Part shown: piece after piece, positions 2-63,885 of the stretch
Layout of the letters: each line of letters opens with the position of its first letter
Numbering within the stretch: the first letter of the stretch is position 1
Assembly: GCF_988243305.1 (NCBI RefSeq)
Contig: NZ_OZ547136.1
Length of the DNA stretch: 64,000 nt
Direction: 5' to 3' (one strand)
Position numbers and translations under genes: made by a program
Notes under the pieces: model-generated
Seen by the model: the letters and a program-made list of their open reading frames with translations, nothing else
The model's database searches: none
What the model was told of the DNA's origin: nothing

Positions 2-4633
<4,632 letters not shown>

Positions 4634-6464: not shown

Positions 6465-7640
<1,176 letters not shown>

Positions 7641-7820
7641 TCAGAATTAACTTAACTGTGAATCATGATGTTTTTAGCATCCTGATAAGAGCTAAAAGTT
7701 TTAACGCTACGTTGTTCGATGGTCAACGCAACGAAAAACAATTCAGATTTTCTTTATAAGAATAGCTGATATTTATTAAGTTAATATTAAGCAGTGAAAT
7801 TTAGTCTATAAGATAATTGG

Positions 7821-7852
7821 CAAAAAAAAGCCCGGTGCAATATACGCCGGGC
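7821..7852 (-). terminator. rho-independent terminator downstream of gnd
   Basis: inverted repeat gcccggtg...cgccgggc followed on the minus strand by an 8-nt T-run. Confidence 0.7.
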
Positions 7853-7879
7853 CTCAATTTTATTGTTGGTTAAATCAGA

Positions 7880-9286
7880 TTAATCCAGCCATTCAGTATG
7901 GAACACACCTTCTTTATCAATGCGCTTATAAGTATGCGCACCGAAATAGTCACGCTGTGCCTGGATCAGGTTCGCAGGCAGAACAGCGGCACGGTAGCTA
8001 TCGTAATAGGCAACCGCAGCAGCGAAGGTCGGAACCGGGATACCGTTCTGTACTGCATAAGCAACGACATCACGCAGCGCCTGCTGGTAGTCATCGGCAA
8101 TTTGCTTGAAGTACGGAGCCAGCAGCAGGTTAGCGATCTGCGGATTTTCGGCATAAGCATCGGTGATTTTCTGCAAGAACTGCGCACGAATGATGCAACC
8201 AGCACGGAAAATCTTCGCGATTTCGCCGTAGTTCAGATCCCAGTTGTACTCTTCAGACGCTGCGCGCAGCTGAGAGAAACCCTGAGCGTAAGAAACGATT
8301 TTGCCCAGATACAGAGCACGACGAACTTTTTCGATGAACTCACCTTTGTCGCCAGCTGGCTGCGCTTGCGGGCCAGAGAGAACTTTAGATGCGGCAACAC
8401 GCTGCTCTTTCAGAGAAGAGATATAACGTGCAAACACAGACTCGGTAATCAGCGACAGCGGTTCTCCGAGATCAAGCGCGCTCTGGCTGGTCCATTTACC
8501 GGTACCTTTGTTAGCCGCTTCATCCAGGATCACATCAACCAGGTAGTTACCGTCTTCATCTTTTTTGGTGAAGATGTCTTTGGTGATGTCGATCAGGTAA
8601 CTACTCAGTTCACCGTTATTCCACTCGGTAAAGGTCTGTGCCAGTTCTTCGTTAGAGAGATTCAGGCCGCCTTTCAGGAGAGAATAGGCTTCAGCAATCA
8701 GTTGCATATCACCGTATTCAATACCGTTGTGAACCATCTTCACATAGTGACCCGCGCCATCAGCACCAATATAGGTAACGCACGGTTCGCCATCTTCAGC
8801 AACGGCGGCGATTTTGGTCAGGATCGGAGCAACCAGTTCATAGGCTTCTTTCTGCCCACCAGGCATGATGGAAGGCCCTTTCAGCGCCCCCTCTTCACCG
8901 CCGGAAACACCGGTACCGATGAAGTTAAAACCTTCGGCAGAAAGCTCACGGTTACGACGAATGGTGTCCTGGAAGAAGGTGTTACCACCATCAATGATGA
9001 TGTCACCTTTATCGAGGTATGGCTTGAGAGAATCAATAGCAGCATCCGTGCCTGCACCTGCTTTCACCATTAACAGGATGCGACGAGGCGTTTCCAGAGA
9101 TTCAACGAACTCTTTCACCGTATAGTAAGGAACCAGTTTCTTGCCTGGATTTTCGGCAATCACTTCTTCCGTCTTCTCACGGGAGCGGTTGAAAATAGAG
9201 ACGGTATAACCACGGCTTTCGATGTTGAGCGCAAGGTTGCGCCCCATCACTGCCATACCGACGACGCCGATCTGTTGCTTTGACAT
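7880..9286 (-). CDS. gnd: 6-phosphogluconate dehydrogenase, decarboxylating
   Basis: 468 aa ORF, N-terminal [16 protein letters not shown]-binding motif. Confidence 0.95.
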
Positions 9287-9448
9287 TGTTTACTCCTGTC
9301 AGGGGTGGTCACCGCCGAGTGTGCGGCTTAAATGTGGTATAGATGTTAACTCACTCATAGAGATGGTGAATAGCATTACCTTTGCGATACCACACTGAAT
9401 ATCTCATCTTTTCCGTCTTTTAAAACCTATTTATATGAATTTACTCAA

Positions 9449-10819
9449 TTACTTATTCAGTAACTCAAGGATAAGTTTTGTCTTTTCTTCCATCAGCGGC
9501 ACATCACCGCGCGATTCCACATTCAGGCGCACCACCGGTTCGGTGTTGGAGGAGCGCAGGTTAAAGCGCCAGTCGGCAAAGGTCATGCTGATGCCATCGG
9601 TACGATCCACCGCCAGCGCCTCGCGGCTAAAGTGCTGTTCGACGCGGTTAATCGCCTCAACGGGTTGCGCCAGTTTGCTGTTGATCTCACCGCTTGCCGG
9701 AAACGCTGCCATCCGGTCGCGCACCAGTTCGCCCAGCGTTTTTCCTTTCAGGCACACCAGTTCGGCTACCAGCAGCCACGGGATCATGCCGCTGTCGCAG
9801 TAAGCGAAATCACGGAAGTAATGGTGAGCGCTCATTTCGCCACCATAGATGGCGTCTTCCTTGCGCATACGTTCTTTAATAAAGGCGTGTCCGGTTTTCG
9901 ACATCACCGGAGTGCCGCCCGCGGCGGTCACCACATCAACGGTATTCCAGGAGAGACGTGGATCGTGGATGATCTTCGCGCCGGGATTTTTTTCGAGGAA
10001 CGCTTCTGCCAGCAGGCCGACAATGTAATAGCCCTCGATAAACTGCCCTTTTTCGTCAAACAGGAAGCAGCGGTCAAAATCGCCATCAAAGGCAATGCCC
10101 ATATCCGCTCCGTGTTTGATGACCGCATTGCGGGTGTCGTCGCGACATTCCGGCAGCAGCGGATTAGGAATACCGTTGGGGAAATTGCCGTCCGGCGTGT
10201 TGTGTACTTTGATTAATTCCACCGGTGCGCCGAGGGCTTTAAATCGGGCTTCAATGGCGTCCACCACCGGACCCGCCGCGCCGTTCCCGGAGTTAATCAC
10301 CAGCTTGAGCGACGTGAGGTTTTTGACGTTGATATAACCGAACAGGTGCTCAACGTAAGCGTCACGCAGATTGATTTGTTGATAGCGACCGCGTTTGGTT
10401 TCATCGACGGGAGGAAAGTCGTTGGCTTCTGCCAGACGCTGGACATCGCGTAGTCCGGTATCACCGCTGATCGGGCGAGCCCCCTCGCGAACCAGCTTCA
10501 TGCCGTTATAATCCATCGGATTATGGCTGGCGGTGACTTCAATGCCGCCATCCACGCCGAGATGGAACGTGGCGAAATAGATTTCTTCGGTGCCGGACAT
10601 GCCAATATCCAGCACATCGACGCCCGCATCCTGTAAACCTTTCGCCAGCGCCAGTTTTAAGGTTTCGCTGGTGAGGCGGGCATCACCGCCTAACACAATG
10701 GTTTTCGGTTTGAGAAATTCGCCATAGGCGCGACCAATGCGCCACGCAATATCTTCATTCAGTTCTTCGCCTAATTTCCCGCGAATATCATAGGCTTTAA
10801 AGCAGGTTAATTTTTTCAT
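9449..10819 (-). CDS. manB: phosphomannomutase, O-antigen cluster copy
   Basis: 456 aa ORF; nearly identical over most of its length to the colanic acid copy at 31900-33270; diverges only in the last ~15 codons. Confidence 0.9.
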
Positions 10820-10843
10820 ATAAAAACCTTACCAATAATAAAA

Positions 10844-11602
10844 TTATTTATGCGCAAATAATTGCATTAGTTTTGATATTTTTCTGATAATGATAGCAAT
10901 TTTCCAATTTACATTATGGTTTTTCATAACTTCTACAATTTCCTTTGTACTTGATATCGCGTTATCAATTCTGGTACTTTCCCCACCCAATCTCATCTTT
11001 ACAAATACTTGAGGAACATAAATAACTTTAATATCATCACGTTTCAAAATCCTGACCATCTGATCATAGTCTGCAGCAATCCTATAGGATAAATCAAAAT
11101 ATCCATCGTCTTTATATAATTCCCTCCTCATATAGAAAGATGGATGCGGTGGTGCCCAGCCTAATGATAGCTTAGAACGTTTAAAAGGACCACTACGCCA
11201 GTATCGTTTGATTATATCAATTTGGTTTTTTTCGAAAAAAACCAAATCACCGTATACAACATCCGCTTTTGTCTCATGGAAACGGCTTACAATAGTTTCA
11301 ATAATATCAGGTCTTGCTAAAAGGTCATCAGAATGAACGAATCCAATAATATCTCCCGTAGATAAATTTATACCTTTATTTAAAGCATCATAGATACCGT
11401 TATCGCTTTCTGATAGACATTTGGTTACTCTTGTTGATACTTCGTTAATTAGTTTTAACGTATTATCTGTAGAACCACCATCAATAATTATATACTCTAT
11501 ATCTTTATAGGTTTGCAACTCTATTGACTCTAAAGTATCCCTTAAAGTCTTTTCACTATTATAAGTCACTGTAATAATACTGACTTTCATTTTAACATCC
11601 AA
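10844..11602 (-). CDS. glycosyltransferase, family 2-like
   Basis: 252 aa ORF; N-terminal SIITVTYN...DGGSTD motif typical of GT-A fold; AT-rich; start may be the internal Met at MKVSIIT. Confidence 0.75.
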   Translation of the reverse strand: MDVKMKVSIITVTYNSEKTLRDTLESIELQTYKDIEYIIIDGGSTDNTLKLINEVSTRVTKCLSESDNGIYDALNKGINLSTGDIIGFVHSDDLLARPDIIETIVSRFHETKADVVYGDLVFFEKNQIDIIKRYWRSGPFKRSKLSLGWAPPHPSFYMRRELYKDDGYFDLSYRIAADYDQMVRILKRDDIKVIYVPQVFVKMRLGGESTRIDNAISSTKEIVEVMKNHNVNWKIAIIIRKISKLMQLFAHK

Positions 11603-11673
11603 TAATAATCATAATTAAATAACGTCAGTACCGCATTACGAATAATAATGTTGCATTAGTATCCAGCATCATT

Positions 11674-13074
11674 TTAGATTCTAACAACATCATCTTCATC
11701 CAAGTAAACACCTGAACGTACCTCAATAATCTCCAAAGGGATCTTTCCTGGATTCTCAATAAAATGAGGTACACCTATTGGTATATAAGTTGATTCATTT
11801 TCAGAAACAAGAAATATTTCATCTTCATAATGGACTTTTGCTGTTCCAGAAACAACAATCCAATGCTCAGTACGATGGTAATGAATCTGTTTAGCAGTTT
11901 TATGTCCAGGATGAATAACGACATGTTTAACCTCAAATCGAGATCCTTCCGCTATAGAGTCATGACTGCCCCATGGCCTAAATATTTCACGATGCTGCAG
12001 ATATTCCGTACGGTTATTAACTTTAAGTTTTTCTACAATATTTTTTACCTGTTGAACTTTATCTTTATGCGCAACGAGAATAGCATCTTTAGTTTCAACA
12101 ACTACTAAATCTTTAACTCCTACTACACCAATTAATCTATGTTGTGAGTAAAGATAACTGTCAGAAGAATCATGAATTAATACATCTCCTCTAATTGCAT
12201 TTCCACTTTTATCTTTTCTGCTAATTTCCCATAATGCAGACCAAGAACCAACATCGCTCCAGTGGGCATTTAATGGAACTACCACAGCCTCTGTTGTTTT
12301 CTCCATAACAGCGTAATCAATGGATTCTTCAGGGCAACAACTAAATGAGTCATTATCTATACGGATAAAATCAAGATCTTGTGTAGAGGACTTCAATGCT
12401 TGTTGGCATATTTTTAGTATGTCTGGTCTAAATTTATTCAACTCATCAATAAACACAGAAGCCCTAAACATGAATATTCCACTATTCCAAAGATAATCTC
12501 CATCTTCAAGATATTTTTTGGCCACATCTAGCTCAGGCTTTTCAACAAAAGCAGAAACTTTAAAACCATATTCATTTAAATTTTCTCCGGTTTTTATATA
12601 GCCATATCCAGTTTCGGGTTTGGTTGGCACAATACCAAAAGTTACCAGCTTACCTTCCTCTGCAAATTCTTTTGCAGCCAATATTGACGATATAAAGCGC
12701 TTTTGGTCTTGTATTTCATGATCGGCTGCTAGTACAAGCAGTATTGGATCCTCACCTGATGAAATCGCTTTAAGAGCAGCAAGCGCAACTGCGGGGGCAG
12801 TATTACGACCTACCGGCTCTAGTAAAATGCCACTATTCGCTAAATTTACATTACGCATCTGTTCTGCAACGATAAAACGATGAACTTCATTACAAATAAC
12901 CAGAGCAGGACGATGTTCAACCCCTTCAAGCCTTCTTAAGGTCTCTTGTAGCATAGTCAAACGACTAGTTAACGACAGGAATTGCTTCGGATATAGTGTT
13001 CGAGAAAGTGGCCACAATCTAGTTCCAGAACCACCGGCCATTACAACAGGAAGTAGCATATAAATAACCTTCAC
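11674..13074 (-). CDS. manC: mannose-1-phosphate guanylyltransferase, O-antigen cluster copy
   Basis: 466 aa ORF; [19 protein letters not shown] nucleotidyltransferase motif; paralog of the colanic acid copy but divergent and AT-rich. Confidence 0.88.
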   Translation of the reverse strand: MKVIYMLLPVVMAGGSGTRLWPLSRTLYPKQFLSLTSRLTMLQETLRRLEGVEHRPALVICNEVHRFIVAEQMRNVNLANSGILLEPVGRNTAPAVALAALKAISSGEDPILLVLAADHEIQDQKRFISSILAAKEFAEEGKLVTFGIVPTKPETGYGYIKTGENLNEYGFKVSAFVEKPELDVAKKYLEDGDYLWNSGIFMFRASVFIDELNKFRPDILKICQQALKSSTQDLDFIRIDNDSFSCCPEESIDYAVMEKTTEAVVVPLNAHWSDVGSWSALWEISRKDKSGNAIRGDVLIHDSSDSYLYSQHRLIGVVGVKDLVVVETKDAILVAHKDKVQQVKNIVEKLKVNNRTEYLQHREIFRPWGSHDSIAEGSRFEVKHVVIHPGHKTAKQIHYHRTEHWIVVSGTAKVHYEDEIFLVSENESTYIPIGVPHFIENPGKIPLEIIEVRSGVYLDEDDVVRI

Positions 13075-13526
13075 TTAAAATAATTTTTTGTGTACTGATG
13101 AACTGAGGAATTAGCTAACAATTCGGCTATATCGAACCAATTGTAAGTACTATGTTGTAGTGTTGGATAGTTAATTTGATGTGGCATCAAACTAATCTCA
13201 TATCCGTGTACGACATAATGAGTTGAAAAACAAGTCCCAGAAAAATTGTCGCTGTAGAAATGTTCATAAATCCCAAGAAATTTTGCTTCATTAATGCTAA
13301 TTTGAACACCCAATTCTTCAAAAGTAACTCTTTTGAATGCGTTCTCGAAAGACTCATCTTTAAGAATCCGTCCCCCCGGCACAAACCAATAATTTTGTGC
13401 TGGACGATTAAGGCGCTGACCAAGCAGCGCCTTACCATCTTCGTTTCTTATAATAAGGTCTATCGAGATTAGTGGAGTATGTTCAACTATTGATTTAAAT
13501 AACTCTGTTTCTAATCTCTTGTTCAA
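13071..13526 (-). CDS. gmm: GDP-mannose mannosyl hydrolase (Nudix)
   Basis: 151 aa ORF, Nudix-like, between fcl and manC as in the colanic acid cluster. Confidence 0.8.
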   Translation of the reverse strand: MNKRLETELFKSIVEHTPLISIDLIIRNEDGKALLGQRLNRPAQNYWFVPGGRILKDESFENAFKRVTFEELGVQISINEAKFLGIYEHFYSDNFSGTCFSTHYVVHGYEISLMPHQINYPTLQHSTYNWFDIAELLANSSVHQYTKNYFK

Positions 13527-13528
13527 TA

Positions 13529-14494
13529 TTAACTCCTAAATGAGTCAAGATTATTTATAAACCATTTATATGTTAATTCTAGTCCTTGTTTTAAATTATA
13601 ACGATATTTCCAGCCCAAATTCTCAAGGCGTGTAACATCCATAAGTTTACGAGGCGAACCATCTGGTTTTGTTATATCAAAAACAATTTTTCCATCATAG
13701 CCAACAACTAAAGCCATTGTTTCTGCCATTTCACGTATGGAACAATCAACACCAGTACCTACGTTAATATGAGATAACATTGGTTGAGTATTTTTTTTAT
13801 AAATTTCATCATCAAGCTCCATCACATATACTGATGCAGCTGCCATATCATCAACATATAAAAACTCGCGTTTTGGAGTTCCCGTTCCCCAGACAACCAC
13901 TTCATTTAAACCAAGTTCCTTTGCTTCATGAAAACGCCGCATAAGCGCTGGAATTACATGTGAGTTATTGGGATGAAAATTATCATTCATACCATATAAG
14001 TTAGTAGGCATTACACTGCGATAATCACATCCATATTGGCGATTATAAGATTCACATAGCTTTATACCTGCTATTTTGGAAATAGCATAAGGCTCATTAG
14101 TAGGCTCAAGAGTTCCCGTCAAAAGTGCAGATTCTTTCATTGGCTGTTCTGCAAACTTTGGATAGATACAACTTGACCCTAAGAATAATAGTTTCTTTAT
14201 GCCCGCTTTATAAGATGAGTGAATAATATTGCTTTCAATGAGAAGGTTCTGATAAATAAATTCAGCTGGAAAAGTGTTATTAGCATGAATTCCTCCTACT
14301 TTTGCTGCTGCAAGGTAAACCTGATCTATTCTCTCTTGCTCAAAAAAACATTCAACATCCTTTTGAACTGTCAAATCGAGTTCTTTGTGAGTTTTGACAA
14401 TTAACTCAACATCATTACGTGCTAATAATTGACGACAAATAGCAGAACCAACCATCCCACGATGTCCAGCCACAAAAATTCGCTTCTTGGTCAT
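13529..14494 (-). CDS. fcl: GDP-L-fucose synthase
   Basis: 321 aa ORF; N-terminus [13 protein letters not shown] matches the colanic acid Fcl paralog. Confidence 0.88.
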
Positions 14495-14497
14495 ACT

Positions 14498-15619
14498 TTA
14501 ACGCTCCAAAGAGACTGCCACGTCAAAACCATGGCTTTTAAGAAGTGCATGCTGTTTAGCTTTTTCTAAATCACTAGCCACCATTTCTGCACACATTTCT
14601 TCAACTGTAATCTCTGGCTCCCAACCCAAGACATTTTTTGCTTTTGTTGGATCACCAAGAAGAGTTTCAACTTCTGCTGGTCGAAAATAACGAGGGTCAA
14701 CGCGAACAATAACATCACCAATATTAACACCAACGGCGCAATCTGATGTTTTATTTACAACCATTGCAACCTCATCAACACCAGTACCGGAAAACTCAAG
14801 TTCAAGTCCAACTTCTTTAGCAGACATACGGACAAATTCACGTACAGATATTTGTTTGCCAGTGGCAATAACAAAGTCTTCTGGCTGGTCTTGTTGAAGC
14901 ATCATCCATTGCATACGAACATAATCTTTCGCATGCCCCCAATCACGTAAAGAATCCATGTTGCCAAGATATAAGCATTTTTCTATTCCCTGCGAAATAT
15001 TAGCTATAGCACGTGTGATTTTACGTGTTACAAACGTTTCCCCACGACGTGGGGATTCATGATTGAACAAAATACCGTTGCATGCATACATTCCATAAGA
15101 CTCACGATAGTTTACAGTGATCCAATATGCATACAGTTTAGCTACGGCATAAGGTGAACGAGGATAGAACGGCGTTGCCTCTTTTTGTGGAACTTCCTGA
15201 ACTAATCCATACAATTCAGAGGTTGACGCCTGATAAAATCGGGTTTTTTTTTCTAATCCCAAAAAACGAATAGCTTCCAATAATCGTAAAGTACCTATAG
15301 CATCAACATCAGCTGTATATTCTGGGGATTCGAAGGAAACAGCTACGTGACTCATTGCTCCGAGGTTGTAAACTTCATCAGGTTGAACTTCAGATAATAT
15401 ACGAGTCAAATTAGAAGTATCTGTTAAGTCACCATAATGAAGGTGTAATTTTAAATTAATATTATGGGGATCTTGGTATATATGGTCAATACGTCCAGTA
15501 TTAAAAATAGAAGAACGTCGTTTTATTCCATGAACCTCGTAACCTTTATTTAGTAGAAACTCTGCCAAATATGAACCATCTTGACCAGTAATGCCAGTAA
15601 TTAATGCTTTCTTTGTCAT
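14498..15619 (-). CDS. gmd: GDP-mannose 4,6-dehydratase
   Basis: 373 aa ORF; [20 protein letters not shown]-terminus, highly similar protein to the colanic acid Gmd, but AT-rich DNA. Confidence 0.9.
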
Positions 15620-15629
15620 AAAATTATTC

Positions 15630-16664
15630 CTACAGTAGTTTCTTGTAAATATCGATAGTTTTGTCAGTACATTTTTTCCAAGAAAAACGTTGTGCTTGAG
15701 ATAAACCTTTCTTAATAATTTGATTTCGATTTCTATTTATAAATGATATACCATCAATAAGGTTGCTTATACTTAACTCATCCATCAAATAACCGGCGTC
15801 ACCTGCAACCTCTGGTATTGAGGAGTGATTATACGCAATGAATGGGCATCCTGCCCTCATTGCTTCTAAAAGAGGAATACCAAATCCTTCATAACTTGAC
15901 GGATAAATAAGAGAATGAGCTTGATTAAATTTTAGATTCAACTCTTGCTCAGTTAAATATGGATAATGAATATATCGATATGGTATATATTTATCAAGTA
16001 AAAATTTCTCAGCCTTTCCCAAAGGGCCTCCACCTACAATATATAGTTTGAACCCCTCTAATTTGTTTATTGCTTCAACTGCAAGTTGAAAGTTTTTATA
16101 TGCTTTTCTCGAACCAATAAAAAGCATGAAATTATCATCATCGTTATAATTAACGTTTTTTAATTCATAAAAATTATCAGACACCCCATTGTGAATGATT
16201 TCGATTTTACTTTCAGGTACTGGACAATACCTCAACAAATCATTGGCAGTATTTTCTGAAATGCAAATTATTTTATCACTGTTTTTTATAGCATTGTACT
16301 TCTGATGACAATGAACGTATTTACGTAAACCTGACATATATTTTTCATATGTAAAGTCATGTACTGTTGTTATGTTTTTATTTTTTTTGCCCTTACTAAA
16401 TCTATAATAACTAGAATGTAATAGAGAGTTTTCAGGAATATCAACAGCTCGATACCTTTCAAGAAAGCGAGGATATAGATTAATATAACGTCCAGGTTGT
16501 CGCACATCTTCACTTATAAATTGACAGCCTGTATTCTCATAGTTTAATATCGTATATTCAATATTTGTGGCTTTTATCGCTTTTATTATTTGATTATAAT
16601 AAACAGAAATGCCACCGTATGACTGGAGATTATATATAATACCATCCAAATATAACATAGGCAC
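15630..16664 (-). CDS. glycosyltransferase, GT-B fold (family 1/4-like)
   Basis: 344 aa ORF; C-terminal [19 protein letters not shown] motif typical of GT4 retaining transferases. Confidence 0.75.
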
Positions 16665-16673
16665 CTTTTATAT

Positions 16674-17687
16674 TTAATTGTATCCATCAGGATTTAGCGT
16701 ATGCCATTTCCACGCAGAAGAAAGCATTTCGGTCAAATCTCGCCTAGCCTTCCAGTCCAGTTCTTTTTCAGCTTTGGAAACATCCGCCCAACATTCTGCA
16801 ACATCGCCGCTTCGGTTAGGGCCAAAACTATAATTAATATTTTTCCCAATAATTGATTGAAATGTTTTTATTACTTCTAATACAGAATATCCTCTACCCG
16901 TACCTAAGTTATATATTTTATAATTTCCTCCTTTGCCAAACATTTTAAATGCTGAAATATGCCCCTCAGCTAAATCATTTACATGAATATAATCTCTGAT
17001 ACCAGTCCCATCAGGCGTTGGATAGTCATGACCATAAATAGTAAGCGCAGGTAATTTACCTAAAGCAACATTCATCATATATGGAACTAAGTTAGCAGGA
17101 GTACCTCTGGGATTTTCACCTATTAACCCAGACTCATGCGCCCCCACTGGATTAAAATATCGCAAAATAATCACATCTAATTTAGGGTTTGCCAGAGAAG
17201 CATCTTTTAATATAACCTCGGAGTAATATTTACTGGTCCCGTATGGATTCGTTGTTTCACCTATACGACATTTTTCATTGATAGGTATCGTTTCTGGAAG
17301 ACCGTACACCGTAGCAGATGAGCTAAAGATAATTTTATTTACATGAAAGATCTTCATTAACTCTAACAAATTTAAAAGCCCAACAATATTATTCATATAA
17401 TAACGTATAGGACTTTGAACTGATTCTGAGACAGACTTAAGGCCTGCAAAATGTAATACTTTAGAGAATGTGTGATTCGTGAATATAGTCTTTAATTCTT
17501 TTTTGTCCAATAAATCTACCTTATATGCTCTGATTTTCTTACCACTAAGCTTTGAAATGACTTTGATGATATCTTCTGTAGAATTAGAAAAATTATCTAT
17601 GATGACAACGTCTTCATTCTGCTCCAATAATGACAGAACAGTATGGGACCCAATATATCCAGCTCCACCCGTAACTAATATTGTCAT
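16674..17687 (-). CDS. NAD-dependent sugar-nucleotide 4-epimerase (GalE family)
   Basis: 337 aa ORF; VTGGAGYIGSH Rossmann motif and YGTSK catalytic motif; substrate not determinable from sequence. Confidence 0.8.
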   Translation of the reverse strand: MTILVTGGAGYIGSHTVLSLLEQNEDVVIIDNFSNSTEDIIKVISKLSGKKIRAYKVDLLDKKELKTIFTNHTFSKVLHFAGLKSVSESVQSPIRYYMNNIVGLLNLLELMKIFHVNKIIFSSSATVYGLPETIPINEKCRIGETTNPYGTSKYYSEVILKDASLANPKLDVIILRYFNPVGAHESGLIGENPRGTPANLVPYMMNVALGKLPALTIYGHDYPTPDGTGIRDYIHVNDLAEGHISAFKMFGKGGNYKIYNLGTGRGYSVLEVIKTFQSIIGKNINYSFGPNRSGDVAECWADVSKAEKELDWKARRDLTEMLSSAWKWHTLNPDGYN

Positions 17688-17696
17688 AAAAACACC

Positions 17697-19019
17697 TTAT
17701 TTGAATTTAAAAAAAACTATTTGCATCGATAATCTCAAGCATATGTATGCCATAAAGAACATACCTAATTCAAATATCATAGAAGAAAACTCTGAGCGTT
17801 GGAAATTGATAGATTGGGAAAGAAAAACAAGATAAAGAAAATAGTTGCTCCCAATTAACCTTTCCATTATATATGAATAACCACATAAAATGGCAGGAAA
17901 TATAATTACACCATAATAATTATAATTAATAAAAGCTTCTGTAAAAGGAGTAAATGCATATCCCATCATAAACTCTTGACTTGGCAAATAAACTTCCTTT
18001 GCAAATTGAATAGCTAATGTGTCTGGCTTTAATCCCATAAATAATTCTTTTGGTATAAAGTTTACAATGAACTGAAGATAGGATATACCAAAAAATTGAG
18101 TCTGATAATGTATCGAAGAATAATATTGAAGTGTAGATATAGGATAAATAAATTCACCCAAAGCATTCAATAATCTTATGCTTGATTCGACATTATAATC
18201 TGAACGATATATCCCAAAAAGTATAATCGTTGATACAAATAGAATACTGAACAACGCTACTTTTAATGGTATCTTAAATTTAGCTTTATAAAGTGATAGC
18301 AATACAGCCATAATAAAAGATAAAGCAATTTCTCGTCTTGAACCTACCAGCATTAAAGTATAAAAATATAAAAGCACAGGTATGCTGTATATTACGAAAC
18401 TATAATTTGTGAGACTTTTTTTTACTATCTTTAAATCAAGTAAAATCCAAAAATAAGCAATAACCACATATTTCAGATACCATCCACTTTGACTTACCGA
18501 ATTAATTAACTCTAGGCGAGTACTTTCGCCCAAAGCATTCAGAGAAAGATTTCTTGATTGATATAGAAAAAATAATGATATTAACCATGCTATGCATGAT
18601 GGAATAAATAGATTATAGTTATTGTCATAGTTATATTGTTTGTTTAAAAGAAATATATTGATACCGTGAGGCCTAATCAAACTAATCGATGCAACTATAC
18701 ACCAAACAGCAACACAATATAAGAATGAAGTGTTGATTATATTATTTTCAACATTAAATACATTAACACCAAAAAAATAATACAACAAAAAAGACACAAA
18801 AAAATAAAAAGGCGATAATATTATAAATATTCCATCAAACCATACCCACATTCGATTATATACAAAAAAAAGAATTGCAATTGTAAATATTACAGATAAA
18901 AACCAAATTAGGATAGCATCAATTTCAACTTTGACAGAAGTGCTCAATACAGCAATCATTATCAACCCAATAAAGCCATAAAATTGAGCCAATACCAGTT
19001 TGTATTGTTTATAAATCAT
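17697..19019 (-). CDS. wzy: putative O-antigen polymerase
   Basis: 440 aa, very hydrophobic multi-spanning ORF, very AT-rich, within O-antigen cluster; assignment by topology and context only. Confidence 0.6.
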   Translation of the reverse strand: MIYKQYKLVLAQFYGFIGLIMIAVLSTSVKVEIDAILIWFLSVIFTIAILFFVYNRMWVWFDGIFIILSPFYFFVSFLLYYFFGVNVFNVENNIINTSFLYCVAVWCIVASISLIRPHGINIFLLNKQYNYDNNYNLFIPSCIAWLISLFFLYQSRNLSLNALGESTRLELINSVSQSGWYLKYVVIAYFWILLDLKIVKKSLTNYSFVIYSIPVLLYFYTLMLVGSRREIALSFIMAVLLSLYKAKFKIPLKVALFSILFVSTIILFGIYRSDYNVESSIRLLNALGEFIYPISTLQYYSSIHYQTQFFGISYLQFIVNFIPKELFMGLKPDTLAIQFAKEVYLPSQEFMMGYAFTPFTEAFINYNYYGVIIFPAILCGYSYIMERLIGSNYFLYLVFLSQSINFQRSEFSSMIFELGMFFMAYICLRLSMQIVFFKFK

Positions 19020-19854
19020 ATTTTAACAATCCCGTCCAGAAACCGATTAATCTGTACATATATAATTTTTTTTGTTTTTTTAAAACGATACCAAAAAATG
19101 ATTTTACTGTGATCCTGAAAATTTCCAATAGTAATAAATAACGAGATTTCACTAAATACTTCTTTATCACGACACCATATCCAACTGCATATTTTCTGTA
19201 TTTTTCTGGTATCCCTTCACAATATAAATCATTATCGTGATAAACTCCAAATATAGGTTGAAAACATACTCTAAACCCAAGAGATTTCAGCCGAAAAAAT
19301 AACTCCGTTTCTTCGGATCCACCGAATAAAGTACCAACACCTAACCTTTCATCAAAATATATATTATCGAGTTTATGAGTAAAAATAAAAGTACCCACAC
19401 TTAGTGACGATTTAATTATTTGATTATAACCCATTTCCTTTTTAGTTTTAGGATAAACTCTATTGGCATAAGATTTCATTGTTTGAAAATCTAATACAGG
19501 AACTGAAAGAACGGTTTCTTTTTTGATATTTGATTGAATCACCTTCTCAAAAAAATCAGGAGCATAAAAAGCATCATCATCACAGAACCCAATAACATTA
19601 CCACTGCATAGTTTAAGCCCTTGATTACGAGCAGTTGAAAGTGGTACTTTATTTGATTTAACCAACTTGTATTTTATATTTTTTGCGTGTTTTAAAAATA
19701 ATTGCTCAATTATGATATCATCAGTCTGATCAATAAATATAATTTCTAGGTTTTTGTACGTACTGCTAGCTATGCTATTTAGCAGTCGTTCAATTTCTTT
19801 ATCCCTTCCACCTTGAGTTGTGCCTATCAAACTAATTTTATAAAAGTTATTCAT
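19009..19854 (-). CDS. putative glycosyltransferase
   Basis: 281 aa ORF in O-antigen cluster, GT2-like N-terminal region, overlaps wzy by 11 nt. Confidence 0.6.
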   Translation of the reverse strand: MNNFYKISLIGTTQGGRDKEIERLLNSIASSTYKNLEIIFIDQTDDIIIEQLFLKHAKNIKYKLVKSNKVPLSTARNQGLKLCSGNVIGFCDDDAFYAPDFFEKVIQSNIKKETVLSVPVLDFQTMKSYANRVYPKTKKEMGYNQIIKSSLSVGTFIFTHKLDNIYFDERLGVGTLFGGSEETELFFRLKSLGFRVCFQPIFGVYHDNDLYCEGIPEKYRKYAVGYGVVIKKYLVKSRYLLLLEIFRITVKSFFGIVLKKQKKLYMYRLIGFWTGLLKYDL

Positions 19855-19855
19855 A

Positions 19856-20776
19856 TTAATATCCTTTTTTTAAGATTGAATTAATCTTTATTTTACAATA
19901 ATAAGCAAATTTTCTAAGAAAAACACCATTTATATATTTAATCTTTACTCCTAACTTAGAAAAAATAATAAAATACACCTTAAAATAATAACAAATAGCA
20001 TTAAGAAAACGATGACTTGATTGCGGAAACAAAACCATCCCTAGCTCATCTTTATCGAGAATAATCCCCTGTTTTTTTAAATTACCAATGGCAATAGATA
20101 TGTGAATATCTGCTTGTATATGCTTTTTTATATTCGATATTTGATTTCCGTGATTTCGATAATAAAGCAAGGGTATATTTATATTACAGAATTTTCCGTA
20201 GTTTGCTAATCTACTCCAAAACTCATAATCTTCAGCATATTGGTAGCGTGGCTTATAATATAGGCATTCTTTTTTTATAATGCTGCTTCTCATCATTACA
20301 GTTGGATGAGCAAAACAACTGCCCACCAACAATCCTATTTTACAGGCTTCGTCTGAGTTAGGCATTTTTATAATTTTTCCGCTATTAACAGCTGACTCAA
20401 AAACTTTGATATTAGTTCCACAACACGCTATTTTTTGATCTGCATCCATTATTTCAACTTGTAATCTCAACCTTTCTCTGTGAGCAATATCATCAGCATC
20501 CATTCTAGCAATATACACTCCCGTAGCCATGTCTAATAATTCATTTAAAGTAGCTACTATCCCTTTATTTTCTCTATGCTTAATTTTGAATATCGCGGGA
20601 TATTTATTTTTATATTCATCAAGTATCTTTTGTGTACCATCCTGCGAGCCATCATTGATGATGATAATTTCAAATATTTTATATGTTTGTTCCAATATAC
20701 TGTCAATGCATGCGCCTAAGTATTTTTCAGCATTATATACCGGTATTATAACGGATACTTTGTTTTTATTAATCAT
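19856..20776 (-). CDS. glycosyltransferase, family 2
   Basis: 306 aa ORF; VSVIIPVYNAEKYL...INDGSQD motif. Confidence 0.78.
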   Translation of the reverse strand: MINKNKVSVIIPVYNAEKYLGACIDSILEQTYKIFEIIIINDGSQDGTQKILDEYKNKYPAIFKIKHRENKGIVATLNELLDMATGVYIARMDADDIAHRERLRLQVEIMDADQKIACCGTNIKVFESAVNSGKIIKMPNSDEACKIGLLVGSCFAHPTVMMRSSIIKKECLYYKPRYQYAEDYEFWSRLANYGKFCNINIPLLYYRNHGNQISNIKKHIQADIHISIAIGNLKKQGIILDKDELGMVLFPQSSHRFLNAICYYFKVYFIIFSKLGVKIKYINGVFLRKFAYYCKIKINSILKKGY

Positions 20777-20782
20777 AATATA

Positions 20783-22054
20783 TCATACTTTGTTTTTATT
20801 AAGCAGATAACAGATCGTTACTATTAAGGAGAACATATATAATGCTTGAGATATTATATACGCTTTAAAAACATAAGAAATTTGAGCATTTTCGACGTAG
20901 CATAACGAATACTTACTTAATATACAATATACAGACCATTGTAACACTTCTAACACTATATATTCTTTTACGAATGCTTTGCTAATCAGCAAATAACCAA
21001 GCACCCATGCAATTATCTTAAAAAAATCTCCAATTAGTTGATAAACTATAACATCAACAATAGGAACGAACTCGTGTGTAAATAGAATATTTACTATCAA
21101 ACCGCGAAATGTATACATCAAGACTGAAGATATACAAACTAACGGAACCAAATACAAATAACAAACTTTTATTTCATTAAGCAATTCTGAACGGTTAGAT
21201 GCACTTGAAAACCTTGGAAAGAAATATACCCCCAATGTAGTCGTAATTAACATCAAATAGACTGAACTTATTCTATTAACAGCATCCCACAACCCAGCAT
21301 ACTCAATATTTATTGATGTTATGATTTCATTTCTCACATATAACGTACTAACTGGCACTAATATAGCTGAAGTGACTGTCATTAAAGAAAAAATTATGAT
21401 CCGTTTTAATATTGAAATATCAATTCGATTGCAATTATTAACATAGTATTCTCTTAAATATTTTTTTGAGTAAAAAAAAGTCACAAAAAACAATATAGCT
21501 TGATTTGAAACTACAGCAATCAATGCTCCTCTCATACCAAAAGAGATTGTCAATATAAAGGCGTATATTGCAGATATTAAACTCGATATGATATTAATCC
21601 ATATATAATTTTTAATAAATGACAATCCATTTAACATAGAAAGAATTATATTATTCCATGCATATAAAATAACACTCCCTCCCAAGAAATAAATTGCGAT
21701 GCTTACTTCATCATTAGAATTGAAAAATTGTTCGATAATTATATTTTTAAAGATAATTATGATAACAGCGGTTATAAATCCCATTATAGTAGACAAATAA
21801 ATTGCATTAATCCAAAAACTCCAGATTTTTTCCTTATTACTATTCTTATACTCTGACGTATACTTAACAATACTCGTTGAAATAGCTTGTGATGGCGCAA
21901 CCATAGCTATATTAAGGATATTTTGGATTTGGCCAATAAGTGCATATCCAGACGTACCTAAATATATTGCGAATACTTTATTAAGTCCAAGTAGAGTTGC
22001 TATTTTGACAAATACAGAAAGGCCATTAAGAATAAAGACATTATATACTTTCAC
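20783..22054 (-). CDS. wzx: putative O-antigen flippase
   Basis: 423 aa multi-spanning membrane ORF, first gene after the JUMPstart element. Confidence 0.65.
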   Translation of the reverse strand: MKVYNVFILNGLSVFVKIATLLGLNKVFAIYLGTSGYALIGQIQNILNIAMVAPSQAISTSIVKYTSEYKNSNKEKIWSFWINAIYLSTIMGFITAVIIIIFKNIIIEQFFNSNDEVSIAIYFLGGSVILYAWNNIILSMLNGLSFIKNYIWINIISSLISAIYAFILTISFGMRGALIAVVSNQAILFFVTFFYSKKYLREYYVNNCNRIDISILKRIIIFSLMTVTSAILVPVSTLYVRNEIITSINIEYAGLWDAVNRISSVYLMLITTTLGVYFFPRFSSASNRSELLNEIKVCYLYLVPLVCISSVLMYTFRGLIVNILFTHEFVPIVDVIVYQLIGDFFKIIAWVLGYLLISKAFVKEYIVLEVLQWSVYCILSKYSLCYVENAQISYVFKAYIISQALYMFSLIVTICYLLNKNKV

Positions 22055-22116
22055 AGTTCACCTAACATATTAAGTAGGTTATGATAACAAAACTCATATT
22101 TAATTATACCATAAAT

Positions 22117-22160
22117 ATAAACCACGCTACCGCCCCTGGCTATACAGCTACCAGAGCACT
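22117..22160 (-). promoter_or_regulatory. JUMPstart element with ops site upstream of the O-antigen operon
   Basis: plus-strand cacgctaccgcc at 22123-22134 is the reverse complement of the ops sequence GGCGGTAGCGTG; same motif context recurs upstream of wza. Confidence 0.8.
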
Positions 22161-22407
22161 GCGTGTGTGTCTACAATGTAACGAGCGTTTCATGCTCGCA
22201 ATAAACAAAAAACCAAAAGCTAAATTATCTTACTAATCAGCTCTGAAAACAAGGAAATGTGTAAAAAAAGTCCTATTGCTGACTTGTTATTATCCCGAAT
22301 ATTTATAAATCAATAATAGCAGGAAGACTCGCAACAAGTTACTTTGCCTGCTAATCTTCACAACTATTACAGTCTTTTCGCATCTGTTGCATCCGATTCG
22401 ATTTTCA

Positions 22408-23304
22408 TTATTCCCTTAACAGCTTCTCAATCCCTTTACGGAACTTCGCCCCTTCTTTTAGGTTACGCAGTCCATACTTCACAAACGCTTGCATATAACC
22501 CATTTTTTTACCGCAGTCGTAGCTGTCACCGGTCATCAGCATGGCATCAACAGACTGTTTTTTCGCCAGTTCGGCAATAGCATCAGTCAGTTGGATACGT
22601 CCCCATGCACCTGGCTGAGTGCGTTCCAGTTCCGGCCAAATATCGGCAGAAAGCACATAACGGCCCACGGCCATGATGTCTGAGTCCAGCGTCTGCGGCT
22701 GATCCGGTTTTTCGATAAATTCAACAATGCGGCTGACTTTACCTTCGCGATCCAGCGGTTCTTTGGTCTGGATGACGGAGTATTCAGAGAGGTCACCCGG
22801 CATACGTTTTGCCAGCACCTGGCTACGGCCCGTTTCATTGAAGCGTGCAATCATGGCAGCAAGGTTGTAGCGTAGCGGGTCGGCGCTGGCGTCGTCGATC
22901 ACAACGTCTGGCAGCACCACGACAAATGGATTGTCACCAATGGCGGGTCGTGCACACAAAATGGAATGACCTAAACCTAAAGGTTCGCCCTGACGCACGT
23001 TCATAATAGTCACGCCCGGCGGGCAGATAGATTGCACTTCCGCCAGTAGTTGACGCTTCACGCGCTGCTCAAGGAGAGATTCTAATTCATAAGAGGTGTC
23101 GAAGTGGTTTTCGACCGCGTTCTTGGACGCGTGAGTTACCAGGAGGATTTCTTTGATCCCTGCAGCCACAATCTCGTCAACAATGTACTGAATCATTGGC
23201 TTGTCGACGATCGGTAGCATCTCTTTGGGAATCGCCTTAGTGGCAGGCAACATATGCATCCCAAGACCCGCTACCGGTATAACTGCTTTTAAATTCGTCA
23301 TCAT
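22408..23304 (-). CDS. galF: UTP-glucose-1-phosphate uridylyltransferase-like regulatory subunit
   Basis: 298 aa ORF, nucleotidyltransferase N-terminus, conserved position upstream of O-antigen cluster. Confidence 0.9.
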
Positions 23305-28639: not shown

Positions 28640-28960
<321 letters not shown>

Positions 28961-33270: not shown

Positions 33271-33339
33271 GTCGTTACCCTTTTTCAGGCAATAGTTGGC
33301 CCTGACCGAAGCGGCCAATTTTGTTTTTGTCGTTATTTA

Positions 33340-33550
<211 letters not shown>

Positions 33551-46579: not shown

Positions 46580-47719
46580 TTACCAGTTATGAATGTCGCT
46601 GGCTGTATCCGTCATGTAACGGACACCGCTAATAGTTGGCAGCAACTGATTGATCAGACGGTTCCAGCGGGAAACCGGGGCGGTGGTGACATACACCACG
46701 TCATAAGGTTGCAGGCGGAATTCTGTCGCCATCACCAGCGACGTGGCATCGGACATATCCAGCTGGTAGATATTGGCAATCTTGCCGTTACGCCCACCCT
46801 CGCCTTTCAGCGGACGAATGACAAAGATGCCGCTGGCGTTGGAGGTGGTCATGTCGATGCCTTCAGCATTGCCCAGGGCTTCAGTCAGGGTCATGCCGCT
46901 AAAGTCCATTTTCAGGGTGCTCTGTTTTTTAACTTCACCCATCACAAATACTTTCAGATCATCATTACGCGGCACGTAGAGAATATCGCCGGGGTAAAGC
47001 AGTCGGTTCTGATTGAGGTCGCCGTTTTGCATCAGCGCCTGCAAAGAAATGCGTTCTTCACGACCATTGTGTGTTAGCACCACGTTGCGCCAGTCAGCGG
47101 TGTCGGTCAGACCACCTGCGGCGTTGATGGCATCGAGAATGGTCAGTGGTACGTTGGTGATGGCCTGTTGACCGGATTTATTCACCTGACCTGAGATATA
47201 CGCTTTTTGCGAGCGGAAGGCGGCGATATTAACGTCCACCTGCGGGTCAGCGATGTACGTCGCTAAGCGCCCGGTAATATCACTGCGGATTTCAGCGAGC
47301 GTTTTCCCCACCACGTGAACTTTGCCGATATACGGGTAGAACATGGTGCCGTCAGGCTGTACCCAGTTGCCGGTGTCGCTGGAGCTGCGGTACTGACCGG
47401 CTGGCGTGGTAAGTTCCGGGTGATCCCAGACGGTGACATTAAGAACGTCCCCCGGCCCGACGCGATACTGGTAATTCGCGATCTCGCTTTCCAGCGTCAT
47501 ATTGGGGCGCGCTACGTTGGGTCGTGGGCGTAATTGATCAATCAGGCGCGGGGTCAACGGATAAACATTCACCATTTTGTCGAGATCGAAATCAGCGTCC
47601 TGCTGTTTGATGACGTCTTTGCCCATCGTCGACATATTGCTGCCCGGAAGTACTGTGCAACCGCTTATCAAGGTTACTGACACCAATAATGGCATCAATT
47701 TCATTTTGGATTTCATCAT
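46580..47719 (-). CDS. wza: outer membrane polysaccharide export lipoprotein
   Basis: 379 aa ORF with lipoprotein signal (LISGC); first gene of colanic acid operon. Confidence 0.92.
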
Positions 47720-47892: not shown

Positions 47893-47935
47893 CCAGACAC
47901 GCTACCGCCCCTGGCTTTTTAGCTACCAATACACT
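47893..47935 (-). promoter_or_regulatory. JUMPstart element with ops site in the leader of the colanic acid operon
   Basis: plus-strand cacgctaccgcc at 47898-47909, reverse complement of GGCGGTAGCGTG, about 180 nt upstream of the wza start. Confidence 0.8.
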
Positions 47936-48377
47936 GATTTAGCTTAATTTTTAAAACCCTCTCAACATACAGTCGTTGATGAGAAAGGGTTATTGCGGAA
48001 ATTAACTTCCGAATATAAGGTGACATTATGGTAATTGAATATTGGCTCTCCAATAATGCAGGAGGAAGTGTTACAGCTAACGGAATAGCAGGCAAGGTAA
48101 CAATTCGGCAATTGGCTATTTTTAAGAATTATATTAAGTGTCATTCAACATGGTTTTTAGGAGTTTCTTTAGGTTGACAATATTTAATATAGTGTCTCCA
48201 CATGCGATATTTCTTAAATAATGTTTTATTATTACCACTTTTAATTCAGGGATAATGTGAGGTTATAAACCTCAAATAATATGAGATAAATAGTGCTGCA
48301 ACATTGCATTTTTGCCCCGATTTATCCATGATCGAATTGTGACATTTGTCATACAACGAATAGGTTTTGTACTTACT

Positions 48378-63561: not shown

Positions 63562-63739
63562 AAGAAATCCTTTCTTAGAGAATTATTGAGGTCCGGTATC
63601 ATACCGATTGCAATAATGAAATAAGAGCAAACGAAGAAACTTTCAGAATTAGGCCCGGCGGCGCAGAAAATTTTGCTATTCGCCTCGCAAGAACGGAGAG
63701 CCGTCGATTGACACTAAGGGCGGAGTGACATAATTTCAG

Positions 63740-63885
63740 GAGTGAGGGTTAGGGAGAGGTTTCTCCCTCCCCCTGGTGTTCTTAGTAAGCCTGGAAGCTA
63801 ATCACTAAGAGTATCTCCAGTATGATGACGTGCTTCATCATAACCCTTTCCTTATTAAAAGCCCTCTTCTCCGGGAGAGGGTTTC
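63740..63885 (+). ncRNA. Sib-family antisense RNA (antitoxin of Ibs), boundaries approximate
   Basis: plus-strand region fully overlapping the minus-strand Ibs ORF, ending at a hairpin plus T-tract; locus position after yegL matches the recalled sib/ibs location; 5' end not determinable from sequence. Confidence 0.5.
63782..63841 (-). CDS. Ibs-family type I toxin, 19 aa hydrophobic peptide
   Basis: hand translation of the minus strand gives MMKHVIILEILLVISFQAY followed by a stop; not in the ORF track because it is below the length cutoff. Confidence 0.65.
   Translation of the reverse strand: MMKHVIILEILLVISFQAY

Follow-up and report, generated by a model that had tools for sequence, protein, structure and literature searches.

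A JUMPstart/ops element in the leader of the Escherichia coli O125 O-antigen operon as a putative RfaH loading signal

Introduction

The JUMPstart element with its ops sequence is a textbook feature of nearly every E. coli genome, and the JUMPstart element of enterobacterial polysaccharide gene clusters is said to go back to Hobbs and Reeves in 1994. Both the element and its mechanism, as well as its location in front of the O-antigen clusters of E. coli, have been known since the 1990s and are structurally resolved. The question raised here is whether a short minus-strand sequence between galF and the first gene of an O-antigen cluster, located in a 64-kb stretch of DNA that was analyzed as a whole (hereafter the window), is such an element, and whether the operon behind it can be expected to depend on the antiterminator RfaH. 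A first-pass annotation of the window had proposed both. What is particular to this locus is confined to three details, namely an A-to-T change in the hairpin loop at position 22141, a sequence resembling a −10 element 3′ of ops and, in a related O125ac strain, the insertion of an IS5-family element between ops and wzx.

Sequence comparisons

For the analysis of conservation, the spacers between galF and the first gene of the cluster were aligned for ten E. coli loci with different first genes, among them rfbB, the wzx of O83, an acetyltransferase gene in O104:H4, glycosyltransferase genes and tviB. The canonical 39-mer used for comparison equals the majority consensus of the aligned E. coli loci.

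Results and discussion

Identification of the JUMPstart and ops sequences

The JUMPstart element is 39 nt long (CAGTGCTCTGGTAGCTGTATAGCCAGGGGCGGTAGCGTG), lies on the minus strand at 22123..22161 and shares 38 of 39 positions with the canonical 39-mer. It matches the Rfam family RF01707 over the full length of the model (positions 1-38 of 38, 22123-22161 on the minus strand) with a score of 52.2 bits, compared with a gathering score of 35, and with E = 4.7e-9 for the whole window. The 3′-end of JUMPstart is formed by the 12-nt ops (operon polarity suppressor) sequence GGCGGTAGCGTG at 22123..22134 on the minus strand, which matches the 12-nt ops consensus GGCGGTAGnnTG exactly at 22134-22123 on the non-template (coding) strand and reads cacgctaccgcc on the plus strand. 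The first-pass annotation had placed a JUMPstart/ops element upstream of the O-antigen operon, and sequence, strand, position and gene context all agree with this proposal. Its coordinates for ops (minus strand 22134..22123, plus strand 22123-22134) are exact on both strands, while the wider range of 22117-22160 that it gave covers ops, but misses one base at the 5′-end of JUMPstart and adds six bases 3′ of ops.

A chance origin of the match was ruled out. Two matches to the ops consensus GGCGGTAGNNTG are present in the 64-kb window, where 0.13 were expected and none of 100 shuffled sequences gave two. The canonical 39-nt JUMPstart has a single match in the window at 22161..22123 with one mismatch, compared with 0.00 expected. 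This sole mismatch is the A-to-T change in the hairpin loop at 22141, which among the aligned loci is present only in O125ab and O125ac and for which no functional effect is expected. An ops-like sequence with one mismatch (GGCGGTGGCGTG, plus strand, 3379-3390) was also considered and set aside as probably non-functional, because the mismatch changes A7 to G and A7 is required for the recruitment of RfaH (PMC5995543).

The functional positions of ops have been defined by structural and mutational work. RNA polymerase pauses at U11 of ops, a consensus-type pause, and a hairpin formed in the non-template strand by the C3:G8 pair flips out T6, so that T6 is the flipped-out base and T11 the pause position, with G5 and T6 being recognized by RfaH (PMC5995543). 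Recruitment of RfaH is abolished by the substitutions G4C, G5A, A7T and G8C and is lowered approximately 3-fold in vitro by C3G and T6A; moreover, T11G is strongly defective in an in vivo reporter, and G12C removes the pause at U11 (PMC5995543). In the window these bases are located on the minus strand at G1 = 22134, C3 = 22132, G5 = 22130, T6 = 22129, G8 = 22127, T11 = 22124 and G12 = 22123, and direct reading against the mutational data gives the wild-type base at C3, G4, G5, T6, A7, G8, T11 and G12.

The core of ops is present in two copies. One GGTAGC is located within ops at 22131-22126 and the other, a direct repeat of it, at 22147..22152 (read 22152-22147 on the minus strand), 21 nt apart in direct orientation. 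The first-pass annotation had described paired gctacc-like half-sites. The two copies are real, but they are direct repeats and not the half-sites of a dimer operator; recognition by RfaH involves one ops, which adopts a small hairpin in the single-stranded non-template DNA. The upstream copy, which overlaps the 5′ arm and the loop of the Rfam hairpin, has flanks (TCT...TGT) that lack both C3 and the T11-G12 pause dinucleotide.

No open reading frame covers ops, and the site is located inside the untranslated 353-nt spacer between galF and wzx. Since the Rfam threshold is passed and all experimentally relevant ops bases are present on the non-template strand of this untranslated spacer, the element was assigned, with a probability of roughly 0.9, to the JUMPstart/ops leader of the O-antigen (rfb) operon of E. 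coli O125, that is, to the loading signal for RfaH. No feature of the sequence speaks against this assignment.

Organization of the O125 O-antigen operon

The O125 O-antigen operon comprises 12 genes on the minus strand at 9449..22054, as delimited by open reading frames, the RefSeq annotation of the identical locus of strain NCTC8623 and NCBIfam matches. The gene order is wzx, two GT2 glycosyltransferase genes, wzy, galE/gne, a GT4 gene, gmd, fcl, gmm, manC, a further GT2 gene and manB. Upstream lies galF (22408..23304, minus strand; TIGR01105 galF, 688 bits), the conserved neighbor, with its stop codon 353 nt before the start of wzx, and gnd (7880-9286) follows 3′ of manB, so that the cluster sits between galF and gnd. 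A 551-nt query across the site found four complete E. coli genomes with 100% identity; these are O125 strains including NCTC8623, in which the annotation of the locus lists galF followed by wzx as 'O125 family O-antigen flippase'. The first operon gene, wzx, starts with a GTG codon at 22054, exactly 68 nt from the last ops base at 22123, in good agreement with the distance of about 70 nt given in the first-pass annotation.

The gaps between the genes of the cluster range from −11 to 71 nt, and a scan of the operon for internal intrinsic terminators gave no evidence of such sites, the number of terminator-like sites being at chance level (9 vs 8.8 expected, of which only two, both weak, are on the coding strand). 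The short gaps between genes of the same strand and the lack of a terminator excess are consistent with one transcription unit of 12,606 nt. According to its GC skew, the mRNA strand of the cluster is G-rich and not C-rich and, due to this composition, does not resemble a classical Rho loading substrate throughout.

Eleven of the genes have GC contents of 0.276-0.387, and the operon as a whole has 0.35 compared with 0.48 for the window, so that the description as a 12.6-kb AT-rich operon holds for the length and the overall composition. It fails for the last gene, manB (9449-10819, minus strand; CpsG model, 1047 bits), which has a GC content of 0.543 compared with 0.326 for the rest of the operon. 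At this 3′-end the cluster appears mosaic-like with the colanic-acid cpsG type, and gmd, fcl, gmm, manC and manB are present once more in the colanic-acid cluster of the window. At the other end the GC content drops across the leader junction from 0.51 in galF to 0.285 in wzx. The AT-rich composition of the eleven genes is of the type preferred by H-NS, a protein that typically silences AT-rich DNA of horizontal origin.

Conservation among E. coli loci and comparison with known systems

The 11 aligned E. coli regions all have the same ops, and their JUMPstart sequences are nearly invariant. A 77-nt query around the element was matched in 4798 of the 5426 complete E. coli genomes, and in 25 of 40 rows, among the matches listed, the match ended at query position 57-58, where ops ends. 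For most other serogroups no homology extends beyond the 3′-end of ops, and in the clusters starting with rfbB, wzx or a glycosyltransferase gene divergence begins directly after the GTG of ops. The homology ending at ops makes the element the last conserved sequence before the serogroup-specific DNA. The conserved 39-mer is a practical anchor in order to define or amplify O-antigen clusters; for the O125 cluster it marks the 5′ regulatory boundary and carries little weight beyond correct annotation. The 64-kb window does not include the gene rfaH, but its presence in the source strain is almost certain, because 5425 of the 5426 complete E. coli genomes have it.

With the JUMPstart family (RF01707) the window sequence shares 38 of 39 positions, the layout of a hairpin followed by ops at the 3′-end and the location in the coding-strand leader of a polysaccharide operon, and it differs from it by the one loop base at 22141. 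The ops/RfaH systems at rfb, waaQ (rfa), hly, kps and tra of E. coli have an ops identical to that of the window, which likewise lies in the non-template strand of a leader region ahead of a long AT-rich operon. RfaH-dependent operons, dependence being known for rfb and waaQ, are often described as having no canonical ribosome-binding site. In this respect the O125 locus differs, since its wzx is preceded by a recognizable Shine-Dalgarno-like sequence.

The closest experimentally studied counterpart is the galF-wzx leader of strain CFT073 (O6). Its alignment with the window extends from galF to the end of ops, the two ops sequences do not differ and both clusters begin with wzx, whereas the sequence after ops and the whole cluster are serogroup-specific (O6 vs O125). 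Further differences are a single −10 substitution in the promoter block discussed below (GACAAT in CFT073, GATAAT in the window) and a 10-nt deletion upstream of this block in the window relative to CFT073 and K-12. By its sequence, the ops of the window is an ortholog of the CFT073 wzx site, to which binding of RfaH was found experimentally. ChIP-seq of CFT073 located RfaH at eight ops sites, including those of wzx and wza, all eight in leader regions on the non-template strand, and no RfaH loading was found at intragenic ops sites (PMC9765446). All eight RfaH-bound operons were also bound by H-NS/StpA (PMC9765446).

The other JUMPstart element of the window heads the colanic-acid operon wza-wcaM (47898-47936, minus strand; RF01707, 57.3 bits) and is located 178 nt upstream of the wza open reading frame (46580-47719). 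It has the same ops on the same strand as the O-antigen copy, but it differs at 9 of the 27 positions 5′ of ops and in the distance to the first gene (178 vs 68 nt). Both ops-consensus sites of the window are located in operon leaders, on the coding strand. In CFT073 the wza operon has been described as cryptic unless its promoter is activated (PMC9765446).

Features of the leader

Within the galF-wzx spacer a sequence resembling a sigma-70 promoter was found on the minus strand at 22224..22252, consisting of a −35 element TTGTTT (22252-22247), a 17-nt spacer and a −10 element GATAAT (22229-22224), about 90 nt (89 nt) upstream of ops. A consensus promoter scan of 21900-22500 missed this block, in which the −35 element matches at only 3 of 6 positions. 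The blocks CTTGTTT and TAAGA.AATT are invariant across the ten serogroup-diverse loci and are also found in CFT073 and K-12. Judged by sequence and conservation, TTGTTT-17-GATAAT is probably the best promoter candidate for the operon. Two minus-strand candidates delivered by the scan, at 22430-22401 (inside or at the end of galF) and at 22142-22114 (overlapping JUMPstart), are weak and not conserved and were rejected. With a predicted start near 22217 the leader would be approximately 163 nt long, and ops would be located at approximately +84 to +95. In the K-12-type leader the −10 element is separated from the GTG of rfbB by 178 nt, which corresponds to about 172 nt if transcription starts 7 nt behind the −10 element. 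A leader of 173 nt was reportedly described for the O7 cluster by Marolda and Valvano in 1998, and the K-12-type length would agree with this figure.

Between the promoter candidate and JUMPstart the minus strand encodes a hairpin of 6 bp at 22181..22199 (GCGAGC-AUGAAAC-GCUCGU), which is present in the minimum free energy (MFE) and centroid folds. It can be aligned in K-12 and CFT073, where a one-sided C-to-U change keeps the pairing, and it is absent from the aligned leaders of O83 and O104.

The part of the leader between ops and wzx (22055..22122, minus strand, 68 nt) is serogroup-specific. It contains the Shine-Dalgarno-like sequence AGGTGA at 22063-22058 (minus strand) before the GTG of wzx, and the recruitment of ribosomes by RfaH may matter less for wzx because this gene has a ribosome-binding sequence of its own. 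The same part contains a perfect extended −10 element, TGgTATAAT, at 22111-22103 on the minus strand, 12 nt 3′ of ops. Extended −10 motifs occur in the window at chance frequency (2 vs 2.55 expected). A −10-like element after ops was considered as a general feature of O-antigen leaders and rejected, since it is absent from the leaders of other serogroups and specific to O125. It is improbable that TGgTATAAT acts either as a sigma-70-dependent pause, relieved when RfaH excludes sigma from the clamp helices, or as a secondary promoter for basal wzx transcripts independent of RfaH. If it did, the O125 leader would be a two-signal variant of the standard JUMPstart leader.

In the related strain E. 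coli O125ac:K+:H10 C 236-04A (NZ_CP109924.1) an IS5-family element of approximately 1.2 kb with an ISKpn26-like transposase is inserted between ops and wzx. It occupies 508-1713 of the compared locus, equivalent to 22062-22065 of the window, and is inserted 11 nt before the GTG of wzx. The insertion is accompanied by a TTAG duplication and has the same orientation as the operon, and the strain is still serotyped as O125ac. In this strain either RfaH-modified polymerase reads through the insertion sequence or the insertion sequence supplies a promoter.

Predicted mode of action and alternative readings

The promoter and the dependence on RfaH in the O125 strain are suggested by conservation and by the homologous loci. 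RNA polymerase would start at the conserved promoter (predicted start near 22217) and transcribe into the leader until, with ops (22134-22123) in the transcription bubble, it would pause at U11 (22124). The non-template strand would then fold into the tiny C3:G8 hairpin with T6 (22129) flipped out, and autoinhibited RfaH would recognize G5 and T6 and bind to the β′ clamp helices in place of NusG. As known for RfaH, its C-terminal domain refolds after loading and can recruit a ribosome, while RNA polymerase modified in this way becomes resistant to pausing and termination. At the O125 locus the C-terminal domain would refold into a β-barrel able to recruit a ribosome via S10, and the modified polymerase would be expected to resist pausing, Rho-dependent termination and roadblocks of H-NS/StpA over the 12.6-kb wzx-manB cluster. 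This resistance to termination would allow the distal genes to be expressed. The prediction is that O-antigen expression in O125 strains needs RfaH; in other E. coli, loss of RfaH attenuates virulence and gives rough LPS.

A different reading assigns the function mainly to the RNA, with the stem-loop CUGGU...GCCAG (22154-22136) of the transcript as the functional unit, e.g. as a protein- or sRNA-binding or processing signal. In Rfam, JUMPstart is listed among the cis-regulatory RNAs and has a hairpin of 5 bp, to which the window sequence fits, but the invariant part of the element is ops, and ops is located outside this hairpin. Folding of the leader gave the CUGGU/GCCAG hairpin in both the MFE and the centroid structure, although the whole leader fold is no more stable than those of shuffled sequences (z = −1.13). 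The hairpin is formable, 96% of the cells being paired in the 11 E. coli copies, sequences that are too similar for a covariation signal, and among its pairs in these copies there are no compensatory changes, three never varying and one varying on one side. Moreover, one pair is broken from U-A to U-U in two sequences (O83 and O104) without rescue. While a conserved stem-loop among JUMPstart elements was reported by Weinberg et al. (PMC2864571), recognition was assigned to the non-template DNA by structural and mutational work (PMC5995543), and a mainly RNA-based function is considered improbable. The 39-mer might also be kept chiefly as a boundary or homology anchor for the exchange of O-antigen clusters between galF and gnd, with regulation being minor at this locus. 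The end of homology, which in most other serogroups coincides exactly with the final base of ops, the divergence directly after the GTG of ops and the fall in GC content from galF to wzx at the junction are all in line with such a role. However, a recombination junction needs no invariant 12-mer that matches a pause and RfaH signal, and the colanic-acid operon, which is not serogroup-variable, is headed by the same element at 47898-47936. ChIP-seq, in addition, places RfaH at homologous sites (PMC9765446), and an anchor with little regulatory function is very improbable. The two roles are not exclusive, and the regulatory element may simply mark the point up to which purifying selection acts ahead of the variable region.

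It is also conceivable that ops is intact but the O125 cluster is largely independent of RfaH, with transcription starting 3′ of ops, either from the element at 22111-22103 or from internal promoters. The perfect extended −10 element 12 nt after ops and 63 promoter-like matches in 7500-22420 would suit this reading, but the counts are those expected by chance (2 vs 2.55 for the extended −10 motif and 63 vs 61.0 for the promoter-like matches), and TGgTATAAT is specific to O125 and not conserved in other leaders. H-NS, in addition, typically silences AT-rich horizontally acquired DNA, and next to no weight is given to this reading. For the preferred reading, the loading of RfaH at ops, the promoter-like matches have a different consequence: because the AT-rich cluster holds them at a chance number, the dependence of the distal O125 genes on RfaH may be quantitative and not absolute.

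Further RNA elements in the window

Apart from the two JUMPstart elements, several other structured RNAs were found in the window. An algC RNA motif (RF02929, 77.3 bits) is located on the minus strand at 33275-33324, directly upstream of the colanic-acid phosphomannomutase gene cpsG. Three naRNA4 matches (RF02564, 72.7-81.9 bits) on the plus strand at 28718-28789, 28815-28885 and 33411-33481 are REP/BIME-type repeats in intergenic regions of the colanic-acid cluster. Additionally, a full-length Sib RNA (RF00113, 145.9 bits) is encoded on the plus strand at 63708-63856; in the type I toxin-antitoxin pair Ibs/Sib it serves as the antitoxin.
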